Position numbers and translations under genes: made by a program. A DNA stretch of 64,000 nucleotides, from assembly GCA_965215845.1 (NCBI GenBank), contig CBDCEL010000002.1, positions 22,954 through 86,953 of the forward strand, written 5' to 3'. Shown here in pieces: positions 9,117 to 61,279 of this stretch. Below the pieces are notes generated by a model, which saw only the letters and a program-made list of their open reading frames with translations, did no database searches and had not been told where the DNA came from. This DNA is from Aurantibacter sp. (GTDB taxonomy: Bacteria > Bacteroidota > Bacteroidia > Flavobacteriales > Flavobacteriaceae). Position 1 is the stretch's first letter. Every line of letters begins with the position of its first letter.

Positions 9117-9270
9117 CCATTGTTAAATTTTAAGGCTTCCCCTCCTCAAATGATGAAGGGAATGAATCCCGACTTTTTTGTCGGGAGAAAGGGGTGGTTG
9201 ATTTTTCAACCCCTCCGCCCTTGATTTAAGGGTCAAGGTCACCTTCGCTCAACCAAGGGGAGAAGCCCCC

Positions 9271-10218: not shown

Positions 10219-10279
10219 TTTCCAGTTTCCATTGTTTCAGGCCCAATTTGAAACCTGAAACTACAGCAACCAGAAATAT

Positions 10280-12724
10280 TCAAAAGTTTCCTATTCTGAT
10301 AATATCGGCAAAAATTCCGGATGCCGTTACATCGGCCCCGGCACCTGCACCTTTGATGATCATAGGCTGGTTCGGGTAACGTTCCGTGTAGAACAATACG
10401 ATATTATCGCTTCCTTCCAGATTATAAAAATCATGTCCTTTAGGAATCTTCTGCAGCCCAACACTTGCCGTTCCATTTTCATATTGGGCCACGTATTTCA
10501 ATTTGCTGTCGGCATCGATCGCATTCTTATAAAGTTCCTGAAAATTGGATTCGTACTTTTTCAATGACTCAAAAAAATCATCATTACTTGTAGTTTCCAA
10601 ACTTTCCTTAGGCAAGAAAGACTTGTTCCTTATATCATCGATTTCAAGTTGATGGCCACTTTCCCGGGCCAAAATCAAAATCTTCCGCATGACATCGATG
10701 CCACTTAAATCGATTTTAGGGTCTGGTTCGGTATAGCCTTCCTCTTGTGCTTGCTTGACTACATCATGAAAAGTGGTCTGGTCATTAAAATTGTTGAAGA
10801 TAAAATTGAGGCTACCGGAAAGTACAGCTTGAATCTTTAGGACGGTATCTCCTGAGGCCATCAAATGTTTCAGGGTATCGATGATGGGCAGACCGGCCCC
10901 GACGTTCGTTTCAAAAAGAAAAGGAGCGTTGTACAGCGTGGCCAAATTTTTCAAATTCCTGTAGTTCTGATATTCAGAGGAACAAGCAATTTTGTTACAA
11001 GTTACAACTGAAATGCTATTTTTTAGATAAGAATCATAAGTAGAAGCAACTTCTTCGCTTGCAGTATTGTCAATAAAAATACTATTGCGATAATTGAGCT
11101 TTTGTACGGTTTCGACGAATTTTGCCTTATCGGCCTTTTGTCCGTTGGCTAAAACCGATTCCCAGTTTTTTAAGGAAATGCCACCCTCGTCAAATACCAT
11201 GGTACGTGAATTGGAGATTCCGATGACACGGATATTGAGCTTTAGGTTTTCTTTGAGGTATTTTCGCTGTTGTTCAACTTGGGCCAAAAACTTTCCGCCA
11301 ACATTGCCGACGCCCATCACATATAGATTCAGTTGTTTGATGTTTTCTTCAAAAAATTCCTCATGCAGGGAATTCAAGGCTTTTTTTACATCGGTAGACT
11401 TGATTACGGCCGAAATATTGCGCTCGGATGCCCCTTGTGCGATCGCCCGAATATTTACATTATTTTTTCCGAGGGTGCTAAACATCTTTCCACTCAACCC
11501 TTGATGACTTTTCATATGGTCACCGATAAGGGCAATTATGGCCATTCCGGTTTCAGATATTACGGGGTTTATTTTCTTCCGTGCGATTTCAAAGGCGAAG
11601 GCCTCATTTATTTTTTGTACAGCTTTTTTTACATCTTTTTCATCGACCCCAACACATATGCTGTGCTCTGAAGAGGCCTGCGTAATCAAGATCACATTAA
11701 TTTCGGCCCTTGAGAGCTCTTCGAAGAATCGTGCTGAAACCCCGGGTATACCTACCATGCCCGGACCTTCTAAAGATAACAGCCCGATACTTTCAACAGA
11801 ACTAATACCAGTGACCACCCTCTTGTCCCCATTTTCGGATCTTGCTATCAAAGTACCCAAGGCCTTGGGATCAAACGTATTTTTGATATGGATTGGAATG
11901 TTCTTCGACAGTACGGGTTGAATGGTCGGGGGGTATAAGACGGAAGCCCCAAAATGTGAAAGTTCCATGGCCTCTTCATAAGAGAGTTTGGCAATGGGTT
12001 TGGCCTGTTTTACAATACTGGGGTTAGCGGTGTACATGCCGCTGACATCCGTCCAGATTTCCAAAACCTCCGCATTTGTTGCCGCCGCAATAATTGCGGC
12101 GGAATAATCGGATCCACCGCGTCCCAAGGTTGTAGTTTCCCGGTTTTCCGAAGAAGCTATAAATCCTCCCAAGACAGAAATCTTATGGTCGTGACTTTCA
12201 AAAAAATCAACGCATTTTTTATTGGTGTACTCAAAGTCGACAATGGCCTTTCCGAATTGTTCATCGCTTCGGATGAGTTCCCGACTATCCTTAAAGACGA
12301 CATCCAACCCTTCCTGTAAAAAATATTCCGAAATAATGTAGGAGGACAATAATTCTCCGTAGCTAACGATTTTATCGGATAGTTTTGGCGTCAATTCGCC
12401 AATGGAATAAGCACCTTCAAGAAGACTTTCCAATGTATTGATATCTGATTTTGCCTTACTCAAAACCGAGCTTTGCGAGTTTAAGGGAAGTAATTCCTTG
12501 ATGGCCTCCAAATGGCGCGACTCAATTTCATCCACGAACTTTGAATAGGAGTCGTCTTGCTGAGAAGCTTTTTCCGCGGCTTTAAGGAGCAAATCTGTGA
12601 TTCCGCCAAATGCCGATACGACTATGGCCAATTTGGCGCCCTTTGTCTTGGCGATTATGTTTTTGACCTTCCTAATATTTTCTGCTTTGGCGACCGATGT
12701 GCCGCCAAACTTTAAAACCTTCAT
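10280..12724 (-). CDS. thrA: Bifunctional aspartokinase / homoserine dehydrogenase
   Basis: 814 aa. N-terminal MKVLKFGGTSVA aspartokinase signature, ACT region, and a C-terminal homoserine dehydrogenase domain (GVGNVGG Rossmann motif). Confidence 0.95.
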   Translation of the reverse strand: MKVLKFGGTSVAKAENIRKVKNIIAKTKGAKLAIVVSAFGGITDLLLKAAEKASQQDDSYSKFVDEIESRHLEAIKELLPLNSQSSVLSKAKSDINTLESLLEGAYSIGELTPKLSDKIVSYGELLSSYIISEYFLQEGLDVVFKDSRELIRSDEQFGKAIVDFEYTNKKCVDFFESHDHKISVLGGFIASSENRETTTLGRGGSDYSAAIIAAATNAEVLEIWTDVSGMYTANPSIVKQAKPIAKLSYEEAMELSHFGASVLYPPTIQPVLSKNIPIHIKNTFDPKALGTLIARSENGDKRVVTGISSVESIGLLSLEGPGMVGIPGVSARFFEELSRAEINVILITQASSEHSICVGVDEKDVKKAVQKINEAFAFEIARKKINPVISETGMAIIALIGDHMKSHQGLSGKMFSTLGKNNVNIRAIAQGASERNISAVIKSTDVKKALNSLHEEFFEENIKQLNLYVMGVGNVGGKFLAQVEQQRKYLKENLKLNIRVIGISNSRTMVFDEGGISLKNWESVLANGQKADKAKFVETVQKLNYRNSIFIDNTASEEVASTYDSYLKNSISVVTCNKIACSSEYQNYRNLKNLATLYNAPFLFETNVGAGLPIIDTLKHLMASGDTVLKIQAVLSGSLNFIFNNFNDQTTFHDVVKQAQEEGYTEPDPKIDLSGIDVMRKILILARESGHQLEIDDIRNKSFLPKESLETTSNDDFFESLKKYESNFQELYKNAIDADSKLKYVAQYENGTASVGLQKIPKGHDFYNLEGSDNIVLFYTERYPNQPMIIKGAGAGADVTASGIFADIIRIGNF

Positions 12725-22329: not shown

Positions 22330-24862
22330 ATGGCGGAAGGCGAAAAATTGATTTCGATCAACATAGAAGATGAAATGAAATCGGCCTACATCGATTACTC
22401 GATGTCGGTCATTGTGTCACGTGCACTGCCAGATGTGCGTGATGGCCTTAAACCGGTCCATCGAAGAGTGCTTTATGGAATGTACGAACTTGGTGTCAGA
22501 TCCAATAGTTCGCATAAGAAATCGGCACGTATCGTAGGGGAGGTTTTGGGTAAATACCATCCACATGGAGATACCTCGGTCTATGATTCGATGGTGCGAA
22601 TGGCGCAGGAGTGGAGTTTGAGATATATGTTGGTCGACGGGCAAGGGAATTTTGGTTCTGTTGATGGTGATAGTCCGGCAGCCATGCGGTACACAGAGGC
22701 TAGAATGCGAAAGATTGCTGATGAAATGCTGGCCGATATCGACAAGGATACCGTCGACCATCAACTGAATTTCGATGATTCGTTGGAAGAACCCACCGTA
22801 CTCCCGACAAGGGTGCCTAATCTTTTGGTTAACGGGGCATCTGGTATTGCCGTTGGTATGGCAACCAATATGCCGCCCCACAACTTATCTGAAGTAGTTG
22901 ATGGAACTGTTGCCTATATCGATAACAACGATATTGAAATCGATGAGTTGATCCAACATATCAAGGCCCCTGACTTTCCGACAGGTGGAATTATCTATGG
23001 ATATGATGGTGTAAAAGATGCCTTTCACACCGGTAGGGGGCGCGTAAAGGTCCGGGCCAAAGCAGAAATCGAGGAGGTACAGGGTCGAGAATGTATCGTT
23101 GTCACCGAAATACCCTATCAGGTCAATAAGGCCGACATGATCAAAAAGACGGCCGATTTGATCAACGAGAAAAAAATCGATGGTATCTCAAGTATTCGCG
23201 ATGAATCGGATAGAAAGGGAATGCGCATCGTTTACGTACTGAAGAGAGATGCCATTCCGAATATCGTGCTGAACACACTTTATAAGTACACGGCACTTCA
23301 GTCCTCATTTAGTGTGAACAACATCGCATTGGTCAATGGCAGGCCCCAATTGTTGAATGTTAAGGAGATGATCCACTATTTCGTGGAACATAGACATGAG
23401 GTTGTGGTTCGCCGAACCACTTACGAACTTAAAAAAGCAGAGGATCGGGCGCATATTCTTGAGGGTCTGATCATTGCTTCTGACAATATCGATGAGGTCA
23501 TCAAAATAATTCGTGCCTCCTCAAATGCCGATGAGGCCAGGGAGAATTTGATGGAGCGGTTCAAATTGACCGAAATCCAGGCCAAGGCCATAGTAGAGAT
23601 GCGCTTGCGTCAATTGACGGGTCTTGAACAAGATAAATTGCGTTCCGAGTACGATGAGATCGTCAAAACGATCGCCGATTTGAAAGACATTTTGGCGAAG
23701 AAGGAGCGTAGAATGCAAATCATCAAGGACGAGCTCTTGGAGGTCAAGGAAAAGTATGGGGACGCTCGCCGATCGGAAATCAATTTCGCCGGGGGCGATT
23801 TGAGTATTGAGGATATGATTCCTGATGAGCAAGTGGTGATCACCATTTCACATTTGGGTTACATCAAGCGCACTCCACTATCGGAATACAAAACCCAAAA
23901 TCGCGGAGGCGTCGGGCAGAAAGCCTCTTCTACTCGTAATGAGGATTTCTTAGAGCATCTCTTCGTTGGCACCAACCACCAGTACATGCTGTTCTTTACC
24001 CAAAAGGGAAAGTGTTTTTGGATGCGCGTATATGAAATTCCCGAAGGAAGTAGAACTTCCAAAGGAAGGGCCATTCAGAACCTGATCAACATCGAACAAG
24101 ACGATATGGTCAAGGCATTTATCTGTACCCGCGACCTTAAGGATGAAGACTATGTCAATAGTCATTATGTGATCATGGCGACCAAACGGGGAACTGTTAA
24201 GAAAACTTCATTGGAACAATATTCCCGCCCACGTCAGAACGGGATCAACGCCATTGGCATACGTGAGGGCGACGAATTGTTGGAAGCCAAACTCACCACG
24301 GGGACCAGTCAGATTTTCTTGGATTGAAATCGGGAAAGGCCATCCGCTTTGAGGAAAGCAAGACCAGACCTATGGGAAGAAATGCCTCGGGTGTAAGAGG
24401 TATCAAATTGGCCAACGAAAATGATGAGGTCATCGGAATGGTTTCGGTACACAACTTCGAGGATGAGATTTTGGTTGTTTCCGAAAATGGCTATGGCAAG
24501 CGATCGAGCATAGAAGACTATAGGATCACCAATAGAGGGGGTAAAGGGGTTAAGACGATTTCGATTACCGAAAAAACAGGAGGACTGGTCGCTATCAAGA
24601 ACGTATGCGACTCAGATGATTTGATGATCATCAACAAATCGGGCATCGCCATTCGTATGAGCGTAGAGGATTTACGTGTCATGGAAGGGCTACACAAGGG
24701 GTAAAATTGATTAACTTGAAAGACAACGATTCCATCGCCGCGGTGGCCAAGGTCATGAAAGATGAAGACAATCTTGACGAGGTCGATATTATGGATATCG
24801 AAGTCACCACAGAAGATGGCACGGCTCTTGATAATACAAGCTCGGACGAATCAGAAGAATAA
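22330..24862 (+). CDS. gyrA: DNA gyrase subunit A, with two apparent 1-nt deletions (about 24320-24322 and 24683-24684)
   Basis: Three consecutive frames read colinearly: ...[18 protein letters not shown]...[30 protein letters not shown]...SSDESEE. The N-terminus has the canonical AAMRYTE active-site Tyr motif. Confidence 0.95.
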
Positions 24863-32539: not shown

Positions 32540-32614
32540 CGGGGTGTAGCGTAGCCCGGTTATCGCGCCTGCTTTGGGAGCAGGAGGTCGCAGGTTCGAA
32601 TCCTGCCACCCCGA
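32540..32614 (+). tRNA. tRNA-Pro (anticodon TGG)
   Basis: Acceptor CGGGGTG/CACCCCG, anticodon stem-loop CCTGC-TTTGGGA-GCAGG, T-arm GCAGG-TTCGAAT-CCTGC. Confidence 0.9.
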
Positions 32615-32619
32615 CGAAC

Positions 32620-32847: not shown

Positions 32848-34081
32848 ATGACAGCTTCAAAGACTTTTAAGATTCTATTTCGACAAATCAAAGCCAGGGG
32901 CAATGGCGAAGTAGCTCCTATCTATGTTCGAATTACCGTAAGGGGAAGGCGTGTTGAGATCAGCACCGACTTGTCCTATTCAATGGCGGAATGGGACACT
33001 AAACAAGGAAGAGCCAAAGGAAGGGTGGCTCAGGCAAGGGAATTGAATGACCAACTGGACAGCATCTATGTGGAAATCAAGGAGTGCTATAGGACGCTCA
33101 AAAGGGAAGGTAGATTCATAACTGCCCAAGCGATTAAAGCTCGATATCTTGGAACCGACCACAATGATGAAACATTGCTAGGACTATCAAGATATCATTT
33201 TGATAAGAACAGGGGTAAACTTGCTCCGGGAACTTTGAAAAATTACTTCACAACGGAAGCTTATTTGAAGGACTTTGTAATCAAGGAGTACAAAACAACT
33301 GACATTCCACTGGAATTTATTCAATATAGTTTTGTCGTCGATTTTGAACAATTTCTCCGCAACCCCAAAAACCACATGAGCAAGACTCGTCCGTTAAAGA
33401 ACAATGGCATAATGAAACACATCGAACGGCTCAAAAAACTGGTTGGTTTTGCAGAAAAATTGGGTTGGATTTCAAAACATCCGTTCGAAAAGTATGAACT
33501 TTCATACGACAAATTCAGAAACGGGTTTTTGACAGAACATCAATTAAGGAATTTTGAGACCGTCGAACTGAATAGCCCTAAATTAATTCGTGTACGCGAT
33601 GTTTTTATTTTTTTGCTGCTATACCGGATTGGCCTATATCGATGTCAAACAATTGAACCGACAAAATATTGTTATGGGAATCGATGGGCGTCAGTGGTTG
33701 TCCCTTTTCCGCGAAAAAAGCGATGTGCCAGTTAAGATTCCCCTTCTGGACAAAGCAAGGACCATTTTGAAAAAGTATAAAAATTTCGAAGATTCAGAAA
33801 GGTTATTCCCCGTTTGTTCAAACCAGAAAATGAACCAATACCTTAAGGAAATTGCCTCCTTGTGCAAAATTGACATTAAAGTAACTTGTCATATTGCCCG
33901 TCATACTTTTGCTACTACGGTAACCCTTTCCAATGGAGTGCCCATTGAAACGGTTTCGAAGCTCTTGGGGCATGCCAAGCTTTCCACCACCCAGATATAC
34001 GCCAATGTTGTCGAAAGGAAAATAAAGGAGGACATGAGCAAGTTGCAGAAAAGGCTAAATAATACTGCGCAAAGTGCATAA
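32848..34081 (+). CDS. Tyrosine recombinase/integrase of the ICE; apparent +1 frameshift in the T7 run at 33608-33614
   Basis: The two ORFs join as ...LIRVRDVFIF/CCYTGLAYIDVKQL. The C-terminus has HIARHTFATT and LLGHAKLSTTQIYANV. Confidence 0.85.
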
Positions 34082-34201: not shown

Positions 34202-34241
34202 GGCCATCACCGAAGGCTGGATAAATTGTGATGGCCTTTTT
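34202..34241 (+). terminator. Rho-independent terminator after the integrase
   Basis: GGCCATCAC (34202-34210) pairs with GTGATGGCC (34228-34236), followed by T5. Confidence 0.65.
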
Positions 34242-34431: not shown

Positions 34432-34515
34432 ATGTTTTTGCAGCTTCAAGCTTTCAAAGACTTTAAACCGAAGGTCTACTGTACCACAAAAGCCTTATAT
34501 TTAAGTTCTTACTAG
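34432..34515 (+). CDS. Speculative 27-aa ORF, MFLQLQAFKDFKPKVYCTTKALYLSSY, a possible substrate peptide
   Basis: Hand-translated. It ends 9 nt before the dehydratase ATG. 5 of the last 12 residues are Cys, Thr or Ser. It is too short to appear in the ORF track. Confidence 0.2.
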   Translation: MFLQLQAFKDFKPKVYCTTKALYLSSY

Positions 34516-34524
34516 CTGACCAAA

Positions 34525-36776
34525 ATGAAAAATTCTTCCAGAATGCGGTTTCCGTATGTCCAGTTTGACCGATTCTGTATCCGCACTCCATTATTTCCTG
34601 TCGAATTTTTCAAGAAGTTGACTTCCGACAAGGAAATTCACGATGAACAACTAATGGAAAAGATTAATAATCCAGTTATCCAAGAAGCACTTTTCTTGGC
34701 TTCACCGGATCTCTATTTCCAAATCGGTTAGATGGTGCAAAGGTGAAATCAAGAGTGTGGCAAAAAAAAATAGGATTAAACTCTCACTATTAAAATATTT
34801 GACCAGAATGGCCACTCGTTGCACACCCTTTGGGCTGTTCGCTGGTTGCTCAGCGGGAAATTTTGCATCCAGTAGCTCATTAGAAGTCCCCCCACCGGAA
34901 TATTATAAAAGACAAACACGGTACGATATGCATTTTTTGGTATCGTTTTCAAGTTACCTGTCGAATAAAAAGAAGATTAAGGATCAAATCAAGTTTTATC
35001 CAAATTCGACTATTTATAAAATTGGTAAGAGGTATCGCTATGTTGAATACACCTACGTGGAAAAAAGAAGACAACACAGTTTGGAATCTGTTGTCCATTC
35101 TCCCTACTTGGAGAAAATTCTTAAAATATCCAATAAAGGAGCAACAGTAGAAACCCTTGTTAAAAAGATGACAGAGCTTGGAATTGATAAACCGGAGGCA
35201 TTAAGATTCATAAGCGAACTAATCTCCAACCAAATATTGATTGGTGATCTTGAACCTTCTGTGACGGGCCAGGACTCCCTAGAAGAACTTCGATTGAAAC
35301 TATCGGAGTTGGATAATACCGAGGAGCAGTTGGTACTTGTTAAGGGAATGCAATTGAGACTGGATGTAATCGATCAACAATTGGGCAATCGAATAAATAA
35401 ATACCTATCAATTAAAGAATTGTTTTCGTCATTGGGAATACCCTACGAATTAAAATATTTATTCCAAACTGACCTTTATACTTCCTTAAGGGGAGAAAAA
35501 TCTTGGGTATTCCATCTTAAAGAAAGTAAAACTGGGAATGGCCTTCCTGAACAAAATTTCGACTTTGACAAAAAATCAGAACCTCGAACGTTTCAAGGAC
35601 TCATTCCATAGAAGATACGAAGGTCAAAAGATACCACTTTTACAAGTTTTGGATGTTGAAAGCGGAATTGGTTACGTTCAAAATCCCAACAATTTAGTGA
35701 CCACCCCTTTTTTGGATGATATCGATTATGTAGGTGAAAATATGTCTAGAGATACCTTGGAAACGAGTTGGTCGTCTTTTCACAGGGTACTTCACAAAAA
35801 GTTGTATGAAACAATTTCAATCAATGCTGAAGAAATCAAATTGACTGACCGCGATTTTCCAAGTTTGGAATACGATTGGCTCGATGCCCCAGAGACGATT
35901 TCCGTGATGTTCGAGGCCATCATTGAGAAAGGTCAGGAAAAGATAGTTATGGATTATTGTGGACCTTGGGCAGCAAAATTACTGGGTAGGTTTTGTTATG
36001 GTGATGACGGAGTGAAGAAAATGGTAAATGAAATCGTCGCTACGGAAAAAGAATTATTGCCGGACAAAGTACTTGCTGAAATTGTGCATCTACCCGAATC
36101 CCGAACAGGTAATATATTACGCAGACCAAGCTTAAGAGCTTACGAAATACCATACTTGGGCAAATCGAATCTTGCCCGAGAAAATCAAATTTCTCTAACG
36201 GATATTTTAGTCGCTGTTGAACAGGGTAACGTAAAACTTTATTCAAAAAAAATTGAAAAAGAAATAATCCCATGTTTAACGAACGCCCACAACTACACCC
36301 ACAATGCTCTCCCGATTTATCAGTTTTTATGTGACTTACAATATCAGAATAGAAGGAATTATTCTTTTAATTGGGGTAATCTTTCCTCACAATTTAGATA
36401 TCTTCCTAGGGTGACCTACAAGGATGTCATTCTTTCAAAAGCAATATGGAACCTCGAAAAAAAGGATGTTGAAAATATTCTCAATTTTCATAAAAAGGGT
36501 ACATTGACAATCCAAAAAATAAGTTCTTGGCGTATTAGTTTGAAACTTCCAAAACTCATGCAACTGGTAGAAAGAGACAATACCTTATTGATAAATTTTG
36601 AAAATTTGTCCTCTTCACAAATGCTTTTTGACCAGATTAAGAATGCTGACAATTTTCGACTGGAAGAATTTTTATTCAATAATGAGTGTTTGGTGAGGAG
36701 GGGCGAAAACGGTTATTGCAATCAATTTGTTGTTGCTTTTCATAAAGAGCAACCTGAACCAGACGGTAAGATATGA
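34525..36776 (+). CDS. Lanthipeptide/thiopeptide-type dehydratase, N-terminal (glutamylation) domain protein (LanB-N); two apparent frameshifts (about 34725-34730 and the A5 run at 35496-35500)
   Basis: Three colinear ORFs. Hallmark motifs are FCIRTPLFP, ALFLASPDLY, LKYLTRMATRCTPFGLFAG, FKDSFHRRYEGQKIPLLQVLDVESGIGY and EIVHLPESRTGNILRRP. Confidence 0.8.
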
Positions 36777-37627
36777 AGCGCAAATTCATTTTAGGAGATG
36801 AATGGTTATATTACAAGGTATATTGCGGACCCAGCTCGGCCGATTTAATTCTTCAAGATGTCATTTTACCATTAACCAGAAACCTCCAAAATGATAATCA
36901 AATCAAACTTTGGTTTTTTATACGCTACCAAGACCCAGAACCACATATACGACTAAGACTGAAGTTGACCAAGTTGGCCCATCTGGGAGATGCCGTAGCA
37001 ATGTTCAAACATTATATTTCACCTTTTCTAATTAGCAATTTGGTATGGTCCGTTCAAATTGATACCTACGTTCGCGAACTTGAAAGGTATGGATCAAGCA
37101 CAATAGAACCTGCAGAACAAATTTTTTTCTGCGACAGTGACTTAGTTGCCAATACTATCCCATTAATTGAGGATGAAGAATTCTATTTTCTATTTGTTTT
37201 GAAATGTATCGATTCGTTTCTGAATCAATTTCAACTAAAAGAAGATGAAAAATGGAAATTTTACGAACAAAACGCCCTCGCATTTAAACATGAATTCAAT
37301 GTCGGCAAATTAACTTTAAAGAGCTTGTCCAAAAAGTACAACGTGCTCAAGGACAGGTTGGAAAGAATCCTATTTCATAATTTATTGAAAGATTATGGTC
37401 CATTGCAAGAATTATTGAATAAAAGAAACAAGGCTATTGACCATTCCGCCAAGAAGATAATATCTCTGAGGAACGAGAATAAGTTAGAAGTAAACTTCTC
37501 TGATCTCTTAGGAAGTTATGTCCACATGTTTTTTAATAGGGCATTTCGAGATAGACAACGATTTTACGAAATGGTGGGATATGACTCTCTTCAAATGTGT
37601 ACCAGAAGAAATTATAAACAAAATTAA
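36773..37627 (+). CDS. Lanthipeptide/thiopeptide-type dehydratase C-terminal (elimination) domain protein (LanB-C / SpaB_C-like)
   Basis: DEWLYYKVYCGP...IKLWFFIRYQDPEPHIRLRLKL is the typical opening of this domain. Its start overlaps the previous stop (ATGA). Confidence 0.8.
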   Translation: MKRKFILGDEWLYYKVYCGPSSADLILQDVILPLTRNLQNDNQIKLWFFIRYQDPEPHIRLRLKLTKLAHLGDAVAMFKHYISPFLISNLVWSVQIDTYVRELERYGSSTIEPAEQIFFCDSDLVANTIPLIEDEEFYFLFVLKCIDSFLNQFQLKEDEKWKFYEQNALAFKHEFNVGKLTLKSLSKKYNVLKDRLERILFHNLLKDYGPLQELLNKRNKAIDHSAKKIISLRNENKLEVNFSDLLGSYVHMFFNRAFRDRQRFYEMVGYDSLQMCTRRNYKQN

Positions 37628-37918
37628 ACAAGGGTGTTGCTAGGAAGCAACTATAATATGGACTGTAGGCTAAATCTAGATTTGCTAAATACATTGGATA
37701 GCTATAATTAACATCATGAAGAAAAACACCAACCTCATGAATTCCTTTTAGAAAAGGGTATTAAACTACTTTAGAAAATTTAATTACCGTCACAAAGTAT
37801 TTAGTTCACGTTCCGAAGAATAGGAACTCCTCCATTTAATTTTAGATTATCTCCAGTACCGCCCCATTACTTTTTCCGATAGCAAAAAAACAACATCCGT
37901 TCTTGGAGACGGCATAAA

Positions 37919-37947
37919 GCCAGCCCTGCAATTTGCAGGGCTTTTTT
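37919..37947 (+). terminator. Strong hairpin plus T6 with no annotated gene directly upstream
   Basis: AGCCCTGCA-ATT-TGCAGGGCT followed by TTTTTT. It lies 290 nt after the LanB-C stop. Confidence 0.6.
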
Positions 37948-38193
37948 ATACGTCTTTCCCAAGCACGGATATTGTAGGAAGTACAGCATCAAAAAAAGGG
38001 TAACGGCATACGGCACTATGGGAAGTAAATCAAAAACAAACAAGATGAAATGGTACAAAATCCTCAAAAAGGAGGCGAGTCCAAAGTTAAAAAATCAAAA
38101 AAGGGAAAACGCACCGGATATAATAAGTAAATCGATTTTAAAGACCGTTCGAGGGTCGGGCGGTTCAATTCTAATTTTTTAAATATTTCAATT

Positions 38194-38547
38194 ATGAGCA
38201 ATCTTAGAAACAAAGTCCAATTGATTGGGAACGTGGGGAACAACCCCGAAATGACCGTTTTGGAAAGCGGCAAAAAACTGATCCGTTTTTCATTGGCTAC
38301 CAATGAGAACTACAAAGATGCAGAAGGCCGAAAGGTACAATCCACCGACTGGCACAACATGGTCGCCTGGGGCAAGACCGCTGAGATCATCGAGAAATAT
38401 GCAGTAAAGGGCAAGCAGATTGCCATCGAGGGCAAACTGACCTCTAGAAGCTATGAGACCAAAGACGGCGAAAAAAGATACGTTACGGAGGTTATCGTAA
38501 ACGAGGTTCTGTTATTGGGTGCCAAGAAGGAAAACAAAGCGGCTTAA
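38194..38547 (+). CDS. ssb: Single-stranded DNA-binding protein, short form (117 aa)
   Basis: OB-fold pattern MSNLRNKVQLIGNVGNNPEM...TDWHNMVAWGKTAEI...KGKQIAIEGKLTSRSYETKDGEKRYVTEV. The C-terminus is basic (KKENKAA) rather than the acidic tip of canonical SSB. Confidence 0.88.
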   Translation: MSNLRNKVQLIGNVGNNPEMTVLESGKKLIRFSLATNENYKDAEGRKVQSTDWHNMVAWGKTAEIIEKYAVKGKQIAIEGKLTSRSYETKDGEKRYVTEVIVNEVLLLGAKKENKAA

Positions 38548-38635
38548 TGTCTTGACCATTCAAAATTAAAGAGGGCATCTCTCGGAAAAGGTCTGCCCTC
38601 TTTTTTCATTACTACTAACGTTTAAATTAAAAGCA

Positions 38636-39085
38636 ATGAAGGACAAAGTTAACGAAATAAAAGTGAGTTATAAAGAATGTGTTCCCGCCACCCTTTGGAG
38701 GAAGATCAATTCCTCGAGGGATGCCGCCGAAATGCTTTACGAACTATGGGATAGCGACACCATAGGTCTTCAGGAGTCTTTTAAAGTGGTGCTATTGAAC
38801 AACAACAATAAGGTCAAAGGTATTTACCAGTTGTCAAGGGGAGGGATTACGGGAACGGTAATCGATATGAGGATTCTTTTTGCCGTGATTTTAAAAACCC
38901 TTTCAGTGGCCATCATCTTGACGCACAACCACCCCAGCGGAATGCTAAAAGCGAGCAGAACGGACAAAGAGCTGACCCTAAAAATCAAAAGGGCAGCCGA
39001 ACTTTTCAACGTGAGGTTATTGGACCACCTGATCATCGTACCCGATGGGGACTATTACAGTTTTGCCGACAACGGAATTCTCTGA
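38636..39085 (+). CDS. RadC-like JAB/JAMM domain protein
   Basis: Exact JAMM spacing HNHPSGMLKASRTD (HxH-x7-S-xx-D); about 150 aa. Confidence 0.85.
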   Translation: MKDKVNEIKVSYKECVPATLWRKINSSRDAAEMLYELWDSDTIGLQESFKVVLLNNNNKVKGIYQLSRGGITGTVIDMRILFAVILKTLSVAIILTHNHPSGMLKASRTDKELTLKIKRAAELFNVRLLDHLIIVPDGDYYSFADNGIL

Positions 39086-39100
39086 TTAATATCGACGGTC

Positions 39101-39298
39101 ATGGTAAAACTAAACTACAGCAATCTGGACGAAGAGACCCAAGAGCGGTTATTGATGAAATCCAAACGGGAAATCGAAGCACGGTATGGCGAGGATCTCA
39201 AAACCTATACCAAGGAAAACGGATTGGACTATCGCCAACTTTTGGAAGAGGAAGCCATCCGAAACCTGTACAACTATAAATACACGTTCACCATTTAA
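39101..39298 (+). CDS. Hypothetical small protein (65 aa)
   Basis: ORF followed by a terminator. No motif recognised. Confidence 0.45.
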   Translation: MVKLNYSNLDEETQERLLMKSKREIEARYGEDLKTYTKENGLDYRQLLEEEAIRNLYNYKYTFTI

Positions 39299-39322
39299 AG
39301 GAAAGGAGATTTTATTCGAACG

Positions 39323-39349
39323 GGGCGACTTGGAAAAGTTGCCCTTTTT
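39323..39349 (+). terminator. Rho-independent terminator
   Basis: GGGCGAC-TTGGAAAA-GTTGCCC followed by TTTTT. Confidence 0.65.
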
Positions 39350-39399
39350 CTTTTAAGGAAACGCAACAGTTTAAATCACTCTTTATGAAATCCATAATA

Positions 39400-39680
39400 A
39401 TAGGGTTTAGACCCTCTTAAAATAGTTGCATTTATCCGTTTTGCGATAGCTGGCCTTTACCTTGAGGGAAAGGTCTTTTGAATTCGCCCTGCGGGGCGAT
39501 TCGGAAGAGCGAGAGGATAACACGCAAAGCGGTGTTATGGTGTTCGGTTTCATTTTCAACCCGTTGAAAATAAGCGGTTTATGGCAGATTCGGGTTTGTT
39601 TTAAGGCTGAAAGGGATAAAAATTTTGGCGCAAAAAGTCCTGGAACCCCTATAAACATTGAAAAATTTTGGCGCAAAAAA
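39400..39680 (+). promoter_or_regulatory. Candidate oriT / mob promoter region
   Basis: Hairpins at 39480-39502 (GAATTCGCCC..GGGCGATTC) and 39517-39538 (ATAACACGC-AAA-GCGGTGTTAT). A 19-nt direct repeat AAAAATTTTGGCGCAAAAA at 39618-39636 and 39661-39679; the second copy abuts the mobA ATG. Confidence 0.5.
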
Positions 39681-40247
39681 ATGAGTAAGAAGAGGTATAC
39701 ATACAATTATTCGAACATCAATGTGAGGGTAATAGTGGCCAAGAGATTTCGCAAATTCTCAAAAAAAATTGCCAAGTCCCATACGGAGGCACTAACTGCA
39801 ATGTTGGACTTTTTCGAATGGCACAACTATTCCCCGAACCAAAGGTTCGCCAAGGACATCAATGCCGGGGTGGAACTCAACCGCAAACGTATCGAGGCCC
39901 ATATCGCCATTTCCAAGTCCATCGAAAAAGCGCAGAACGTTCCCCTGACCGCAATGGAAACAATGCTCAGATCGCTGTTCGAGGAGGACAGCAAAAAAAT
40001 CGACCTCAAGGCAATCGAGGCCGAAATCTCCAAGGAAAGAAAATCTAAAACCAAAGAAAAAAAGAGTTCTGTCCCACGAATAAAGCACGATAGGACCGTT
40101 CGAAAATTGGCAGCGATCAAGGAACGCCTGCAGTACGTTCTTGACCAGATCGAACCGGTAAGCAATCGCTTCGGAAAGGACTTTTTAAAGATTGGGATTA
40201 CCCGTGAGGAACTGGCACGCTTCAAACAGGCCCTAAAAGAATCATAA
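39681..40247 (+). CDS. Mobilization accessory protein (BfmA/BtgA, CTnDOT MobA-like)
   Basis: Position and size (188 aa, basic, start at ATG 39681) directly upstream of the relaxase-like gene. The upstream part of the track ORF overlaps the oriT-like region and is discounted. Confidence 0.6.
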   Translation: MSKKRYTYNYSNINVRVIVAKRFRKFSKKIAKSHTEALTAMLDFFEWHNYSPNQRFAKDINAGVELNRKRIEAHIAISKSIEKAQNVPLTAMETMLRSLFEEDSKKIDLKAIEAEISKERKSKTKEKKSSVPRIKHDRTVRKLAAIKERLQYVLDQIEPVSNRFGKDFLKIGITREELARFKQALKES

Positions 40248-40248
40248 G

Positions 40249-41268
40249 ATGTACATCGCGATCACACCCCAGAAAATTGGACCGACCTATTCGAATAGCG
40301 TAGCGGATTATGTTGCCTATCTCGAAAAGGAAAACGAGGGACTTGAACCAGGTGACCAAGAGCATTTTTTTAACCAGACCGAGGATCGAATTGCTCCCGA
40401 TACCGTCATTTCAGAAATCGATGCCAATACGGCAAAGCTCAAAAAAACCGAACCCAAATTCTATTCCATAATGGTCAGCCCCAGCCAACGGGAACTTAAA
40501 AAAATCGCCGATAATCCAGAGGCCTTAAGAGCATATACCCGTGAACTGATGAAGGAATATGCAAAGTCTTTTTATCGCGATAAGCCCGTGACGGTAGACC
40601 AGATAAAATACTTTGCCAAATTGGAACATGAACGCACCTATCGTGGATTTGAAAAAGAGGTTCTGGAAAATGCTCCCTACCGAAAACGAATTGCCAAACT
40701 GGAAAACGATATCCGCAAAGTCAGTCGTGGGGAACTGGAGGGGAGCATCGAAAAACTGCAACTGGAAATCAAAAAACTTAGGGAAAATGCCCCACACAAA
40801 ATCAATGGACAAATAATCGTTGCGGGGATGAAAAAGGAGGGCGACCAATCCCATATCCATATCATCGTCAGCCGCAAGGACGTGACCAACACCTTTAGTC
40901 TTTCCCCCGGATCAAAGTACAGGGCCTCCGAAGTGGAGATGCGCGGCAAAAAGGTGCAACGCGGTTTTCATCGTGATCGGTTCTATGAAAAATCGGAACA
41001 GGTCTTTGACAAGCTCTTTGGCTACGACCGGAATTTTGCGGAAACCTACAAGGCCAAAAAGACCTTGGTCAAAGACCCCATCATGTTTCGGATGCTCTTG
41101 GGCAACCTACCATCTAGCGAGAAAGCCTTGGCATTAAAGCTGCTTTCAAAATCCGGCATGCGCATTCCCTCGATCCCGACCAATAAAGTACAGTTGGCCC
41201 TAAAGGTTTTCCATCGCTTGCGAAGGGGAATGAAAAAGGCCATGGAAGCAGGGTCGATAGGTATCTAA
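40249..41268 (+). CDS. Relaxase-like mobilization protein (Bacteroidetes MobB/BtgB type)
   Basis: N-terminal Tyr-containing region (SNSVADYVAYLEKEN) and a histidine motif GDQSHIHIIVSRKD. Lies between the MobA-like gene and the coupling protein. Confidence 0.65.
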   Translation: MYIAITPQKIGPTYSNSVADYVAYLEKENEGLEPGDQEHFFNQTEDRIAPDTVISEIDANTAKLKKTEPKFYSIMVSPSQRELKKIADNPEALRAYTRELMKEYAKSFYRDKPVTVDQIKYFAKLEHERTYRGFEKEVLENAPYRKRIAKLENDIRKVSRGELEGSIEKLQLEIKKLRENAPHKINGQIIVAGMKKEGDQSHIHIIVSRKDVTNTFSLSPGSKYRASEVEMRGKKVQRGFHRDRFYEKSEQVFDKLFGYDRNFAETYKAKKTLVKDPIMFRMLLGNLPSSEKALALKLLSKSGMRIPSIPTNKVQLALKVFHRLRRGMKKAMEAGSIGI

Positions 41269-41345
41269 ACAAGGATTATGGAGCAATTGAACTATATAGT
41301 CGTAATCTGGGTCTTGTTTTTGGGAAGCGGTTTTGAGCTTGGCCC

Positions 41346-42875
41346 TTGTCCGCTTGTTTAAAATCCGGTTTTTATATAAATATGTTCTGGATAGCCTTGG
41401 GTTTGGCCTGGGTAGGGTTTAAAACCGGAAATACCCAACAGTTTGTAATGATCTTATTGGTCGTTGGACTGCCATTGTTTTTTATAAACATCCTTTGGTT
41501 CGTCTACTTTCCAAAAGAAGGCGACAATGCGATTATAAAGCGTTACGCCGTTCACTTGAAAGTCTCCAAAGGCGAGGTGCTTCTGAAAAATATCCGTAGG
41601 GGCATTGCCGTTATCGGTGCTGCCGGAAGCGGTAAGACCGAAAGTGTCGTCCATCCATTGTTGAAGCATTTCAACCAATGGAACTTCAGCGGGGTCATTT
41701 ATGATTACAAGGACTTTGAGATTACCGAAATGGCCTACCCGCTCTTTAGCAAGGGCGATATTCCCTTCCAGATCATTTCGTTCGATACGGTTCATGCCAA
41801 GGTCAACCCCATAGCCCCAAGATACCTGCCCGATGAGGAGAGTGTCAATGAAGTCTCCCGTGTTCTCGTGGAAAACCTTTTGGAACAAAGGGACAATCAA
41901 ATGAATGCCACGACCCGGTTCTTTAATGATGTGGTCGAAGGATTGATCGGGGGGATGATATGGCGGTTGAAAACGGATTTCAAGGATGCCTGCACCTTGC
42001 CCCATTTGATAGCCCTGTATCAACAACTCGATACCAGGGGCTTGATCAAGTTTCTTTCCGCGAACACGACTTCTAAGGCCATGGCCGATGCCTTTATCAA
42101 CGGGGTAGGATCGGAGCGACAGACCGCCGGGGTCAAAAGTACCTTGGCCAATGCCTTTAAAAAGATAAGCACACAGCGCATCTTTATGGTACTGTCCGAA
42201 GATGAGATCGACCTGAACATTAACCATCCCGATAGTTTAAAGGTAGTCTCCGTGGTCAACAATCCAAGAATCGAGACTTCCTTGTCCCCGATAATCGCAA
42301 CGATCCTGCATACGATTACCAAACAGATGAGCGTGCGCCGCCGAAACCCTTCCTTTCTGTTGATGGAGGAGGCCGCGACTTTACGCTTGTTGAACATGCA
42401 CCGTATTCCAGCTACATTGCGGAGTTATGACATTGCTACGGTCTATGTGCTACAAGATAAAATTCAAAACGATATGATGTACGGACCTATGGCGAGCAAG
42501 GCAATTCTGGGCAATCTCTCCTATCAGTTTTTTGGGAAGGCCAATGACCCCGATACGGCCAAATACTACGAACGTTTTTTCGAGATCGTGAAGAAGGAGA
42601 CCAAAAGTGTGAACAAAGGGTATAATCTAAATTTCGACACGCGAGTGACGAAAGGGGAGCGGGAGGTGGCCAAGACCAGGGCCGATGTGTTTTATGGATT
42701 GCCACAAGGAAAATTTATGGTCTTGGCGGATGGAAGGGATAAGAAAGTACAGTTTAAAACTCCAAAAATCATTAGGCAATTGCCACCCTCGAAACGAAAT
42801 TCAAAGAAAGAACTTCAGGAGAATTTTGAGCGGATCCATCGGGAGGTAAAAGGGTTGTTGAAAAGCCAAACCTGA
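41346..42875 (+). CDS. Type IV secretion coupling protein (TraG/VirD4 family; CTnDOT MobC-like)
   Basis: N-terminal TM helices and Walker A GAAGSGKTES. A short ATG ORF at 41278 (MEQLNYIVVIWVLFLGSGFELGP...) in another frame may be the true N-terminus, split by one more frameshift. Confidence 0.8.
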   Translation: MSACLKSGFYINMFWIALGLAWVGFKTGNTQQFVMILLVVGLPLFFINILWFVYFPKEGDNAIIKRYAVHLKVSKGEVLLKNIRRGIAVIGAAGSGKTESVVHPLLKHFNQWNFSGVIYDYKDFEITEMAYPLFSKGDIPFQIISFDTVHAKVNPIAPRYLPDEESVNEVSRVLVENLLEQRDNQMNATTRFFNDVVEGLIGGMIWRLKTDFKDACTLPHLIALYQQLDTRGLIKFLSANTTSKAMADAFINGVGSERQTAGVKSTLANAFKKISTQRIFMVLSEDEIDLNINHPDSLKVVSVVNNPRIETSLSPIIATILHTITKQMSVRRRNPSFLLMEEAATLRLLNMHRIPATLRSYDIATVYVLQDKIQNDMMYGPMASKAILGNLSYQFFGKANDPDTAKYYERFFEIVKKETKSVNKGYNLNFDTRVTKGEREVAKTRADVFYGLPQGKFMVLADGRDKKVQFKTPKIIRQLPPSKRNSKKELQENFERIHREVKGLLKSQT

Positions 42876-57283: not shown

Positions 57284-58114
57284 TCACAACCTCCTTCTAA
57301 ATATCACTTCCCGATTCCCCTTCAATTCCTTTAGCCTCAATTCAAGCTTTTCATTATCCCCCAATGTAAACTTGGGCAGGACATAAACGAATCTCGAAGT
57401 TTCCCCATGTCTTGTTTTCCTGGGCATTTGATAAATGTATTGGGGCGTAAGTGGTACGGATTGATAAGAAGCTTTACGTTTGTCATTACCCATGACCATG
57501 GCAAGTTTTAGATAGTCGATATCAAAATCGATTCCCGACTCGTTTTTGATCTCCATCTGTACAAAGACCAAGTCCTCATAATAAACCATATTCTTAATGG
57601 CAAGTAACATGCCTTGTTTTCGCTTCATAATCTTTTTACGTTCAGGTTGTTCCAGAATAGCGGCACAAGATTTTTCCAAAAATGCTATTGGATACTGCTT
57701 TTTTACTACTTGATCGGAATCGGGTTTTATGGTGTCGGTAATGGCAATTGGTTCCCTGTTATGCTCATGTCCGATACTTTCCTCAACCGAAATAAAACGG
57801 TTTTTCTCTGGCAGCTCTTCGCCGTATTCGATTATGTAGGAATACACTTTTCCATCAGTGGTAATGACCAAAAGATTGCTTGGATTTCCTTTGGTCGCTT
57901 TCAATAATCCCAAAGGTTGTGCCCGTTCGCGGTTATAGCTGAACACAAAGTTGTCCGCGCCAACGATTCCTTGCCGTATGTTGGTCGGAAAGAACAAGGC
58001 CAAGTTCATTTTTTCATTTGCATAAATGGTGTCCAGTTTCCTTGTTTTCTGACCGAAATTTGGAAGAATTGTCGAAAGAAGTATAAATGTTATTATTCCT
58101 GTTTTCATGATCAT
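57284..58114 (-). CDS. traN: Conjugative transposon protein TraN-like
   Basis: Signal peptide, size, and position after the TraM-like gene. The assignment rests mainly on the CTnDOT gene order. Confidence 0.65.
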   Translation of the reverse strand: MIMKTGIITFILLSTILPNFGQKTRKLDTIYANEKMNLALFFPTNIRQGIVGADNFVFSYNRERAQPLGLLKATKGNPSNLLVITTDGKVYSYIIEYGEELPEKNRFISVEESIGHEHNREPIAITDTIKPDSDQVVKKQYPIAFLEKSCAAILEQPERKKIMKRKQGMLLAIKNMVYYEDLVFVQMEIKNESGIDFDIDYLKLAMVMGNDKRKASYQSVPLTPQYIYQMPRKTRHGETSRFVYVLPKFTLGDNEKLELRLKELKGNREVIFRRRL

Positions 58115-58163
58115 CTTTTTAAATTAACGCCCACCCGCCTGCCGTCGGGCAGGTTTTGGGCTT

Positions 58164-59102
58164 TCATGACTTTGGTCTTAAAATGAGCTTATAGTTGTTG
58201 TTGACCGTAACCTTTACGTTCCGGTTATTCCGTTGGAATACTTTTTTCACCCCACTCACGCCGGTGTTGACGGCACCGGAAACATCGGGAACACCGGGAA
58301 TATTGAAGTCTTGGATTACATCGCCCAATACCTCGTTGAAAACATCCCCCCGAAAACTGTTCCGGATGTAAATGCCCTCCAGTCCATCGGCATTGTCATA
58401 GGCCTTAAGCTTTAAGGGCGTACCCTCTATGTTTTCCACGTTCAATACGACCCTGTTAGGCCTGAACCTTACGATTCCGTAGAGCAAGGTATTTTTCTTG
58501 ACCTCGATACCTTGAACCGTGGTGTTTTGGGTTGCCCGCATCTGCAAGCGGTCGTTGACCTTGACGGTCTGCTCCCCATCGATTTCCACTTCCAACGATT
58601 CACCCGTACCGTCCGCCAGGACTTGGGGGCTGACCGCAAAGAACATTTGATGTTCGAGACCCATGGCCTTCAGAGGGGAAACCGTATCCTTGGTATCGAT
58701 GACCTCGCTTTTCTTTCTACGTTTTTTTCGTAACGGTTTCCTGGTTCCCGAATCCACGGAATCTTGCGAATAATCGATACGCCCCAAGCGATAGATGCTA
58801 TCCACTATGCGCTGTTTCTTTTTGTCCAAAAGGTCTTCATCATACATTCCCGTTTCATCCAAAAACCGTTCGTCATAAATGCTGGGTGCGATCCGTTCCC
58901 TTTCCTCTTTGATGGCATCGACGGCCACTTTTTTTGAGGGGTACATATCCTCCCCTTCCTCCAATTCAGGCACCAAAGTGTGTTGCAGCTTGTTCGTGTC
59001 ATCACCATTCTCGCCCAATACAAATACCGAATAACTTATGATGAAAAGAATGACGACCCCAATGACGGCCACAAACACTATTTTCTTTTTATCCATTTTC
59101 AT
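58164..59102 (-). CDS. traM: Conjugative transposon protein TraM-like
   Basis: Single N-terminal TM helix, charged linker, and a C-terminal beta-rich domain. Lies between the TraK-like and TraN-like genes. Confidence 0.65.
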   Translation of the reverse strand: MKMDKKKIVFVAVIGVVILFIISYSVFVLGENGDDTNKLQHTLVPELEEGEDMYPSKKVAVDAIKEERERIAPSIYDERFLDETGMYDEDLLDKKKQRIVDSIYRLGRIDYSQDSVDSGTRKPLRKKRRKKSEVIDTKDTVSPLKAMGLEHQMFFAVSPQVLADGTGESLEVEIDGEQTVKVNDRLQMRATQNTTVQGIEVKKNTLLYGIVRFRPNRVVLNVENIEGTPLKLKAYDNADGLEGIYIRNSFRGDVFNEVLGDVIQDFNIPGVPDVSGAVNTGVSGVKKVFQRNNRNVKVTVNNNYKLILRPKS

Positions 59103-59123
59103 AGTCCGATTTTTAAGTCCAAT

Positions 59124-59738
59124 TCAGTCCTCTTCCTTTACCTTCTTCAAGGAACTCTCGAAATAATCCGTTATCAATAGCCCATGGGTGTTTTTCGGAA
59201 AGTTGCGGTCCACGGTTATGAGCCCGCCCGTAGAGACCAGCTCATAGCGATCTATCACCGATCCCCTGTTTATCTCGAATACGGTAACGGTCTTGAACCG
59301 ATACGGTTCGGCGTTCAAATCAATTTTCGATTCCACGCTCAATACCTTTTGTACAAGGGAATATTGTAAGATGCGATTATAGACCCCGTCCGCCTTTTTT
59401 TGCCTGTATACATTATCGACCGTACCGTTGCCGAGCCAAAGGGCTTTCTCCAAATTGCTTTCGTAATTACTGTCATCGATGCCGTAGAAGTATTCATGGA
59501 ACAACTTCAAATGGGACAGGGCCTCGACCTGAAGGTTTTCCTTTTGGGAGACCAATTTCAAGGGAATCACCGAACCGTCGGTATTGACCGCAAAGGCACT
59601 TTCCATCGCCTTATTGTACATATTGAAGACCATCACTCCTGAGAATACGCTTGAGAGCAAGGCCGTTACGGTAACGGTAATAGTAACGTAGCGGTTCAGC
59701 TTTAGCACATCATATATATTTTTATAGGGTAGTTTCAT
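59124..59738 (-). CDS. traK: Conjugative transposon protein TraK-like
   Basis: 204 aa with an N-terminal TM helix (VTITVTVTALLSSVFSGVMVF). Typical size and position. Confidence 0.7.
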   Translation of the reverse strand: MKLPYKNIYDVLKLNRYVTITVTVTALLSSVFSGVMVFNMYNKAMESAFAVNTDGSVIPLKLVSQKENLQVEALSHLKLFHEYFYGIDDSNYESNLEKALWLGNGTVDNVYRQKKADGVYNRILQYSLVQKVLSVESKIDLNAEPYRFKTVTVFEINRGSVIDRYELVSTGGLITVDRNFPKNTHGLLITDYFESSLKKVKEED

Positions 59739-59785
59739 CTTTTTCTTTTTTAGTAAAAAGGGTCTATGACCCTTGCCCGCGGGTG

Positions 59786-60628: not shown

Positions 60629-60631
60629 GTT

Positions 60632-61213: not shown

Positions 61214-61279
61214 GATTTCTAGATTTTGAGATGTCTTGTTCGAAATCTTGAACGAATGACATCGGGTTAAACATTTGAG

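Follow-up and report, generated by a model that had tools for sequence, protein, structure and literature searches.

LanB-type Ser/Thr dehydratases are glutamyl-tRNA-dependent enzymes. In the split LanB systems of thiopeptides and goadsporin (TbtB/TbtC and GodF/GodG), glutamylation and elimination are carried out by separate proteins, no LanC is present, and the dehydroamino acids are kept or used further. MadB (PDB 9G04, the closest solved structure; PMC12241602) and NisB (PDB 4WD9) are single polypeptides that work with LanC, and the pinensin-type class I clusters of Bacteroidota (PMC7268733) combine a split LanB with LanC. Here we describe a split LanB pair, a glutamylation subunit (LanB-N) followed by a glutamate-elimination subunit (LanB-C), in a 64,000-nucleotide (nt) stretch of an Aurantibacter sp. 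assembly (hereafter the window, C2:22954-86953), whose host genome comprises 4 contigs, C2 and C4 among them, and 4.59 Mb. It directly follows the integrase of an integrative and conjugative element (ICE), as the first cargo of that element. It belongs to a LanC-less lineage of split LanB enzymes, and with moderate confidence we regard it as cargo for a peptide made on ribosomes and modified after translation (RiPP), which would act in trans with a precursor and an exporter borne by the same ICE, the frameshifts in LanB-N being contig errors.

The pair resembles the pinensin-type clusters in the split of LanB at the same domain boundary, in the leader motif with its GG site, in the C39-ABC exporter and in its occurrence in Bacteroidota. 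It differs from them in that LanC is found neither in the cluster nor in the genome, in that its LanB-C lies outside the LanC-linked clade, and in belonging to a LanC-less lineage with a fixed TPR/AraC neighbour and Cys-poor or Cys-free cores. Since the survey of Walker et al. 2020 was seeded on LanC (PMC7268733), clusters of this LanC-less kind are absent from its set. Both domains align with MadB and NisB and the elimination motifs are conserved, whereas the enzyme here is made of two polypeptides and shows little sequence similarity to them (phmmer, E 1e-10 to 1e-17). Unlike the thiopeptide and goadsporin systems, the host genome has no azole-forming enzyme, YcaO (PF02624) not being found there by a search that gave matches in control genomes, and the precursors are of the Bacteroidota GG-leader type. 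No pyridine synthase was evident near the pair, an inspection that did not extend genome-wide. The grasp-with-spasm system (TIGR04192/TIGR04193) also uses GG-leader precursors, occurs together with LanC-less LanB on this ICE as well as in four relatives, and probably has an exporter in common with it; its chemistry, based on ATP-grasp and SPASM-domain maturases, is however different, and nothing indicates that LanB acts on its precursors. No specific description of LanC-less LanB clusters in Bacteroidota, or of their link with grasp-with-spasm, was found in the searchable literature. The pair is an enzyme of an ordinary kind, in a LanC-less lineage that is uncharacterised as far as that literature shows.

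The two genes are arranged as follows (window coordinates).

34525-36776, plus strand: LanB-N, glutamylation subunit, starting at the ATG at 34525

34525-34731, plus strand: LanB-N piece 1, ending at a TAG stop (34729-34731) and carrying RTPLFP

34730-35611 (listed open reading frame, ORF, 34757-35611), plus strand: LanB-N piece 2, second frame, PF04738

35496-36776 (listed ORF 35538-36776), plus strand: LanB-N piece 3, third frame, PF04738

36773-37627, plus strand: LanB-C, glutamate-elimination subunit, 284 residues, intact, PF14028 and TIGR03891

The domain matches show these genes to encode the two predicted halves of a split LanB-type Ser/Thr dehydratase. The PF04738 profile (Lant_dehydr_N, 649 positions) was matched by Pfam at positions 34-272 on 34757-35608 (E 1.8e-43) and at positions 292-646 on 35538-36773 (E 5.2e-77), with the coverage spread over three reading frames. 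Piece 1 shares 69% identity with residues 1-67 of an unbroken 749-residue homologue from a metagenome locus (L003), and once these residues are added the domain is covered end to end. Pieces 2 and 3 align without gaps to residues 69-337 and 324-742 of the same homologue, with 61% and 63% identity, respectively. RTPLFP, RCTPFGLFAG and RRYEGQKIPLLQVLD are each present, in three different frames. The original prediction of a LanB-N of about 750 residues was therefore right in domain and motifs, and wrong in taking it for a single open frame and in placing its start at 34432. The separate 284-residue LanB-C that it proposed was recovered in full, with matches to PF14028 (E 6.6e-63, Pfam) and TIGR03891 (E 7e-60, NCBIfam) and a 4-nt ATGA overlap with LanB-N at 36773-36776, as for a separate and translationally coupled elimination protein.

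The alignment of LanB-C to MadB 769-1019 and NisB 732-968 preserves HIRLR, ELERYG and YVHMFFNR, whose positions we take to be those of the Arg/Arg/His of NisB that act in glutamate elimination. Piece 3 of LanB-N aligns to MadB 346-737, so that the split of the pair coincides with the domain boundary of MadB, which lies at residues 741/742 (PMC12241602). The translated LanB-N also contains YLTR and RCTPFG (piece 2) and GIG and GRF (piece 3), which correspond to the conserved LanB motifs YxxR, RxTPFG, GxG and GRF (Marsh et al., PMC3091789). Frame changes aside, the enzyme looks competent.

LanB-N reads in three frames in the assembly, which amounts to two 1-nt frameshifts, one at 34726-34729 (GGTT) and one within about 35491-35503 (AGGGGAGAAAAATC). 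C2:26.7-55.5 kb (window 3724-32549) and C2:118.9-125.6 kb are 95-96.7% identical to C4:565-534 kb in reverse orientation, and most of the indels between C2 and C4 in coding sequences are single bases in short runs (TTTTT/TTTTTT, CCCCC/CCCCCC, GGGG/GGGGG), with 12 indels of this single-base type within the 6.7-kb right flank. C2 is an error-prone contig of a second strain that duplicates part of C4 and has the ICE inserted. The essential gene gyrA (window 22330-24859) runs through three frames on C2, via 1-nt indels at 24319 and 24685, with PF00521 and the gyrase C-terminal repeats in separate ORFs, while the C4 copy is an intact gene of 844 codons. As a cell with such a gyrA would not be viable, these breaks are contig errors. 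Within the insert on C2, similar splits affect the integrase, TraG and C39-ABC, the last of them twice. The integrase changes frame at window 33611-33612, next to a T5 and a T7 run. TraG (window 61280-63696) appears as a DUF3875 ORF and a P-loop ORF with an overlap of approximately 100 nt, likely another contig frameshift.

Two breaks in the 2.25 kb of LanB-N are in line with the background break rate of the contig. Beyond the TAG at 34729-34731, the three pieces aligned to the homologue contain no further stops. Because gyrA, the integrase, TraG and C39-ABC are broken alike on C2, and because the pieces are gap-free, are 61-69% identical to the homologue and contain no other stops, the frameshifts are most likely contig errors rather than the mark of a pseudogene, and the true gene is presumably intact. 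The concern of the original prediction that the gene might be disrupted is thus borne out for the assembly, and most likely not for the organism. Every frameshift on C2 is to be distrusted, including those in other features of the window.

LanC (PF05147) was not found anywhere in the host genome by a search that detects it in 26 of 400 Flavobacteriaceae genomes, in agreement with the predicted lack of a LanC. A LanB-C homologue is present in 33 of the same 400 sampled genomes (∼8%). A maximum-likelihood tree of 38 LanB-C sequences (quick search, midpoint rooting, by which the direction of LanC loss or gain is not established) included 17 loci with LanC at a distance of up to about 5 kb and 12 or more without it, so that roughly 40% of the loci are LanC-less. 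The LanC-linked sequences form one clade, with a Shimodaira-Hasegawa-like approximate likelihood ratio (SH-aLRT) support of 95. Phylogenetic placement, which the original prediction had proposed as a check, puts the LanB-C of the window outside that clade, in a seven-member clade made up entirely of LanC-less loci (SH-aLRT 99) and as sister to L003 (96). L003 is also its best match in a database of 5.8 billion proteins, with 59% identity, and the nearest relatives of the pair are likewise LanC-less. Judged from this tree, the absence of LanC is a trait of the whole clade and not special to the locus. No closer relative of this arrangement was found in public data, and a contig scan of genomes gave one distant locus; a search of four genus mates did not find the pair in any of them. 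The host genome is scored 92.2% complete and three of those four 99%, which is in keeping with contig errors.

The LanC-less LanB-TPR/AraC clusters of Flavobacteriaceae, a grouping defined in the present analysis, have a consistent layout, in which the TPR/AraC regulator is membrane-anchored. In five metagenome loci (L003-L007), LanB-N (∼749 residues) and LanB-C (∼285 residues) are followed, in this order, by a TPR/HTH_18 protein of the AraC type (∼560 residues), a peptide of 50-74 residues, C39-ABC and HlyD, and in L007 an S8 protease lies after the peptide and before C39-ABC/HlyD. The same order of LanB-N, LanB-C, TPR/AraC and peptide is found in L014 and L016. LanB-N, LanB-C and TPR/AraC are consecutive in 10 of 11 further LanC-less genome loci, with S8 and/or ABC/HlyD near most, and a GG-leader peptide ORF directly follows the regulator in nine of these 11. 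Each of the 11 is a peptide cluster in which a regulator and/or an exporter adjoins the pair. An alignment of 16 sequences revealed a leader consensus, K.KL.LEKF.I.KL.....I.GG, that is common to the clades. This consensus is the LxLxKx5L...GG motif that has been described (PMC7268733) for the leaders of class I LanAs having C39 exporters in Bacteroidetes. Asp, Gly and Thr abound in the family cores, and the cores of L048, L049 and L056 contain no Cys, which means that their products are not lanthipeptides. With several relatives having precursors without Cys, it is plausible that the product contains dehydroamino acids and lanthionine rings in small number or none, close to the dehydroamino-acid-only peptide that was originally proposed. 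An ATP-grasp/SPASM pair adjoins the LanC-less LanB operon in L014, L048, L051 and L054.

The context of the pair was established by comparison with the empty site. C2:55,502-118,876 is absent from C4, where the site is empty, and the insert starts right after the 3' end of a tRNA-Pro(TGG) gene and is bounded at both ends by the repeat C[CT]ACCCCGAC. The ICE measures ∼63.3 kb and extends from window position 32,616 to about 95,929, so that approximately 32 kb, half of its length, lies past the window end. With its tRNA-sited integrase, relaxase, coupling protein, Tra genes, direct repeats and empty site, this is a conjugative ICE of Bacteroidota. The placement of the pair as its first cargo, originally proposed from the letters, is confirmed by the integrase directly upstream and the tRNA-Pro insertion. 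The features of the element in the window, apart from the pair, are listed below.

32540-32615, plus strand: tRNA-Pro(TGG), which serves as attachment site and marks the left ICE end (ARAGORN)

32848-34081, plus strand: tyrosine integrase in two frames (ORFs 32848-33735 and 33590-34081; Pfam)

34202-34241, plus strand: inverted repeat GGCCATCAC...GTGATGGCC with TTTTT after it, probably a terminator separating integrase and LanB-N (sequence reading)

37922-37950, plus strand: terminator-like hairpin with a 9-bp stem (6 GC pairs) and a T-run, ∼300 nt 3' of LanB-C (consensus scan)

38194-42875, plus strand: SSB, RadC, a 65-residue ORF, a BfmA-like protein, DUF5712 relaxase and coupling protein (Pfam, NCBIfam)

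57284-63696, minus strand: TraN/DUF4138, TraM and TraG (two ORFs), conjugation genes of the Bacteroidota type (Pfam)

The first integrase ORF matches Arm-DNA-bind_5 and Phage_int_SAM_5, and the second Phage_integrase (Pfam). Along the ICE, the integrase and the LanB pair are followed by SSB, RadC, the BfmA-like protein, the DUF5712 relaxase and the coupling protein, then by a defence island that includes Hachiman, and then by TraN, TraM and TraG. The backbone genes at 38194-42875 are 59-72% identical to their mobile-element counterparts in L007 and L061. The GC content of the LanB pair and of the regulator, grasp and exporter blocks is 0.32-0.38, compared with 0.45 for the ICE backbone and 0.44 for the chromosome flanks.

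The pair appears to form its own two-gene transcription unit, bracketed by two terminator-like hairpins. The upstream repeat has a loop of 17 nt and is for this reason unlisted in the consensus terminator scan. That scan gave four sites in the region versus 3.2 expected by chance, so that the downstream hairpin is weak evidence when taken alone. A scan for sigma-70 promoters, which is unsuited to the promoters of Bacteroidota, gave 12 sites in the region versus 13.2 expected by chance. LanB-C is separated from SSB by a spacer of 567 nt with no recognisable remnant, and neither a regulator nor a GG-leader peptide follows immediately downstream. A hidden precursor or remnant was considered for this gap and for that between integrase and LanB-N, and was rejected: no GG-leader occurs there in any frame, and tblastn at permissive E-values returned only noise. 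The one ORF of note is MKKNTNLMNSF, 11 codons at window 37707-37742, 80 nt after LanB-C, whose start is similar to that of the family precursor peptides; it may be a relic or a chance occurrence.

The partners that accompany the pair in its relatives were located by tblastn, ORF lists and NCBIfam on the part of the ICE beyond the window.

C2:89987-90274, minus strand: HTH_17 protein

C2:90579-92222, minus strand: S8 protease

C2:92277-92441, minus strand: candidate precursor ORF of 54 residues, MKKSTKLNLEKKSIANLGSGNLLNAKQTHKIIGGSEISIYCGGGATQVPTTPKN

C2:92533-94194, minus strand: TPR/AraC regulator

C2:94478-94675 and 94712-94873, plus strand: two GG-leader peptides of the grasp-with-spasm system

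downstream of these, plus strand: grasp-with-spasm ATP-grasp (TIGR04192, E 1e-94) and SPASM maturase (TIGR04193, E 8e-54; NCBIfam)

C2:102129-104320, plus strand: C39-ABC transporter in three frames, 72-84% identical to the C39-ABCs of LanB clusters

C2:104322-105614, plus strand: HlyD

Regulator, precursor, S8 and C39-ABC/HlyD lie at C2:90.5-105.6 kb, which is 3.6-18.7 kb past the window end and 30-45 kb from the pair. The ICE carries one copy each of the regulator, the family-type precursor, S8 and the C39-ABC/HlyD exporter, and the order of regulator, peptide and S8 is that of L007, L014 and L016. The window stops midway through the ICE, and that the partners seem to be missing is mostly a window-edge effect. 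The original prediction had described a pair with no precursor, transporter or protease, an account that it considered open to challenge by a set of LanC, precursor and transporter just outside the region. There is indeed no exporter or protease in the window; a precursor, a transporter and a protease were found past its end, so that the pair is no orphan, and LanC was not among them, which makes this a looser form of the challenge. Thus, neither the “orphan” state of the pair nor its apparent pseudogene should be read as biology, as the partners lie past the window and gyrA is broken alike.

The 54-residue ORF has the family leader (KLNLEKKSIANL...IIGG) followed by the core SEISIYCGGGATQVPTTPKN, which contains one Cys and six Ser/Thr. 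It fits the family alignment and the LxLxKx5L...GG motif (PMC7268733), and its match to the class I leader model NF038153 is weak (E 8e-4, below the cutoff). In the whole genome it is the only convincing ORF that fits the leader pattern written from family members; a second ORF that fits seems to be a spurious match. In the grasp-with-spasm region (C2:94478-101992, 7.5-15 kb past the window end), four further ORFs follow the maturase, two without a family match and then DUF6625 and DUF6734.

From these assignments a pathway can be proposed. LanB-N would glutamylate Ser/Thr in the core of the 54-residue precursor, and LanB-C would eliminate the glutamate to give dehydroalanine and dehydrobutyrine. 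The C39-ABC/HlyD pump would cut after GG and export the peptide, and probably serves the grasp-with-spasm peptides too. S8 may trim the product, and the TPR/AraC protein is predicted to regulate the pathway. In a pathway with no cyclase, the dehydroamino acids would be kept, or at most one thioether would form spontaneously via the single Cys.

The pair and its putative partners do not share the same affinities. The LanB pair is 59-63% identical to that of L003 and 48-50% to those of L006/L007 (clade A), whose regulators are only 23-26% identical to the ICE regulator. The ICE regulator and S8 are closest to those of L014/L016 (clade B), with 47-49% and 53-56% identity, respectively, and the clade B LanB pair, whose branch in the tree is very long, shares no more than 30-33% identity with that of the window. 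The tail of the 54-residue core, C.GG.TQVPTTPKN, resembles C.GG.TTLPTTPTK of the clade B cores. As they group with different clades, the pair and the regulator/precursor/S8 block probably did not form one ancestral operon. Either a clade A pair functionally replaced the native clade B pair, or both blocks are leftovers. Replacement would be the more economical, given one of each component on the ICE and a leader common to the clades. Two other accounts of this pattern were rejected. A single inversion, as the event by which the pair lost contact with a regulator, precursor and S8 of its own, is disfavoured by the clade B affinity of regulator and S8, given the 30-33% identity of the clade B pair, and by the lack of inverted repeats or remnants. 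A chimeric precursor with a clade A leader and a clade B core is not indicated by the 16-sequence alignment, in which one leader consensus runs across the clades and the leader does not discriminate between them.

Several observations weigh against the assignment of the pair to a functional pathway acting in trans. In its assembled form LanB-N does not translate into a single protein, and the site of its first frame change is GGTT and no long homopolymer. The precursor is 32 kb from the pair and on the opposite strand, while the genes are contiguous in every relative examined. Enzyme and precursor appear not to have co-evolved as one operon, and their compatibility is presumptive. At the would-be breakpoints, no repeat or gene remnant marks a rearrangement. 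The assignment of catalytic residues in LanB-C follows NisB mutagenesis and is presumptive.

The strongest competing explanation takes these observations at face value: the pair would be a decaying orphan, cut off from its clade A regulator, precursor and exporter on arrival in the cargo slot next to the integrase and with LanB-N truly inactivated, and the regulator, precursor and S8 of the ICE would be what is left of a clade B cluster whose LanB pair had been lost. The two frameshifts in LanB-N, the distance from the usual neighbours, the different clades of the pair and the regulator/S8 block, and the contiguity of the operon in every relative are all what decay would produce. The breaks, however, carry little weight, as the same 1-nt breaks occur in the essential gyrA and in several ICE genes. 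Moreover, LanB-N has no other stops or gaps, its pieces are as similar to their homologues (61-69% identity) as the intact LanB-C is to its own, and the catalytic motifs of the enzyme are conserved. The ICE has each component of the pathway in exactly one copy, a pattern not to be expected from random remnants. We therefore consider decay unlikely, though well ahead of the explanations that follow.

A second explanation is that the arrangement itself is an artefact, the contig having mis-ordered or mis-oriented a segment, so that in the real ICE the pair lies directly upstream of TPR/AraC, precursor and S8. Inverting C2:60.6-94.4 kb indeed restores the order of LanB-N, LanB-C, TPR, peptide and S8 seen in L007, L014 and L016, and C2 is demonstrably error-prone. 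The errors seen are however 1-nt indels and not structural, inverted repeats are lacking at the two would-be breakpoints, as are, within the ICE, internal repeats that could mislead an assembler. In addition, the flanks of C2 are collinear with C4, and the discordance between clades argues that the blocks were never one operon. This makes an artefact of arrangement improbable.

That the pair serves the ICE itself, in establishment or anti-defence, or dehydrates a protein or peptide encoded elsewhere, independent of the peptide cluster, is suggested by its position beside the integrase, its apparently separate transcription unit and the occurrence of LanB clusters on related mobile elements, and is very improbable given that the pair of those elements comes with precursor, regulator and exporter and away from the integrase, that all 11 LanC-less genome loci are peptide clusters (nine with a GG-leader precursor after the regulator), that a matching precursor and exporter lie on the same ICE, and that public data contain no close relative of precisely this arrangement, with 59% identity for the best LanB-C match.

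RiPP cargo acting in trans, and not a function in ICE maintenance, is accordingly the most likely role of the pair. Nothing points to the establishment or anti-defence role, or to the protein substrate, that had been put forward in the original prediction, which also proposed to check whether homologous elements keep the pair next to the integrase; in the related mobile elements it is always found with precursor, regulator and exporter, and never adjoins the integrase. A broader possibility, which we advance tentatively, is that the LanC-less LanB-TPR/AraC clusters constitute a RiPP subclass that makes linear, Asp/Gly/Thr-rich dehydroamino-acid peptides, and that on this ICE the pair of one clade replaced that of another and acts in trans, from a separate transcription unit by the integrase and as an exchangeable module, on the K.KL.LEKF.I.KL...GG leader.

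For research on peptide natural products, the coherent LanC-less lineage of split LanB enzymes in Flavobacteriaceae is the more interesting by-product of this analysis. As such clusters recur on mobile elements, their products may be competition or signalling peptides that are horizontally traded. SSB, RadC, DUF5712, the coupling protein and RteC lie near the LanB cluster in L007/L061, DUF5712 and an integrase in L014, RadC in L054, and an integrase in L056.

Further observations concern the neighbourhood of the pair and of the element. In a LanC-linked locus (L057, G023:C17:31000-50999; region 7835-11310), LanB-C is directly followed by SSB on the opposite strand, which is 69% identical to the SSB of the ICE; the site where LanB cargo meets the SSB end of such elements may repeatedly serve as a cargo slot. 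In a related element (L061 7084-8682, GCA_947501955), the slot upstream of SSB is occupied by a second TPR/AraC gene and small unknown genes, and not by an integrase and LanB pair. ARAGORN called a tRNA-Lys(TTT) on the plus strand at window 59718-59802, within the minus-strand tra operon and overlapping the ends of two tra ORFs, which may be a false call or a real tRNA borne by the ICE. Elsewhere in the genome, C4:2,753,000-2,767,100 contains a RadC homologue (49%), an intact C39-ABC that is 68% identical to those of LanB clusters, and HlyD as two matches, and may be a second mobile element or a bacteriocin-export island.

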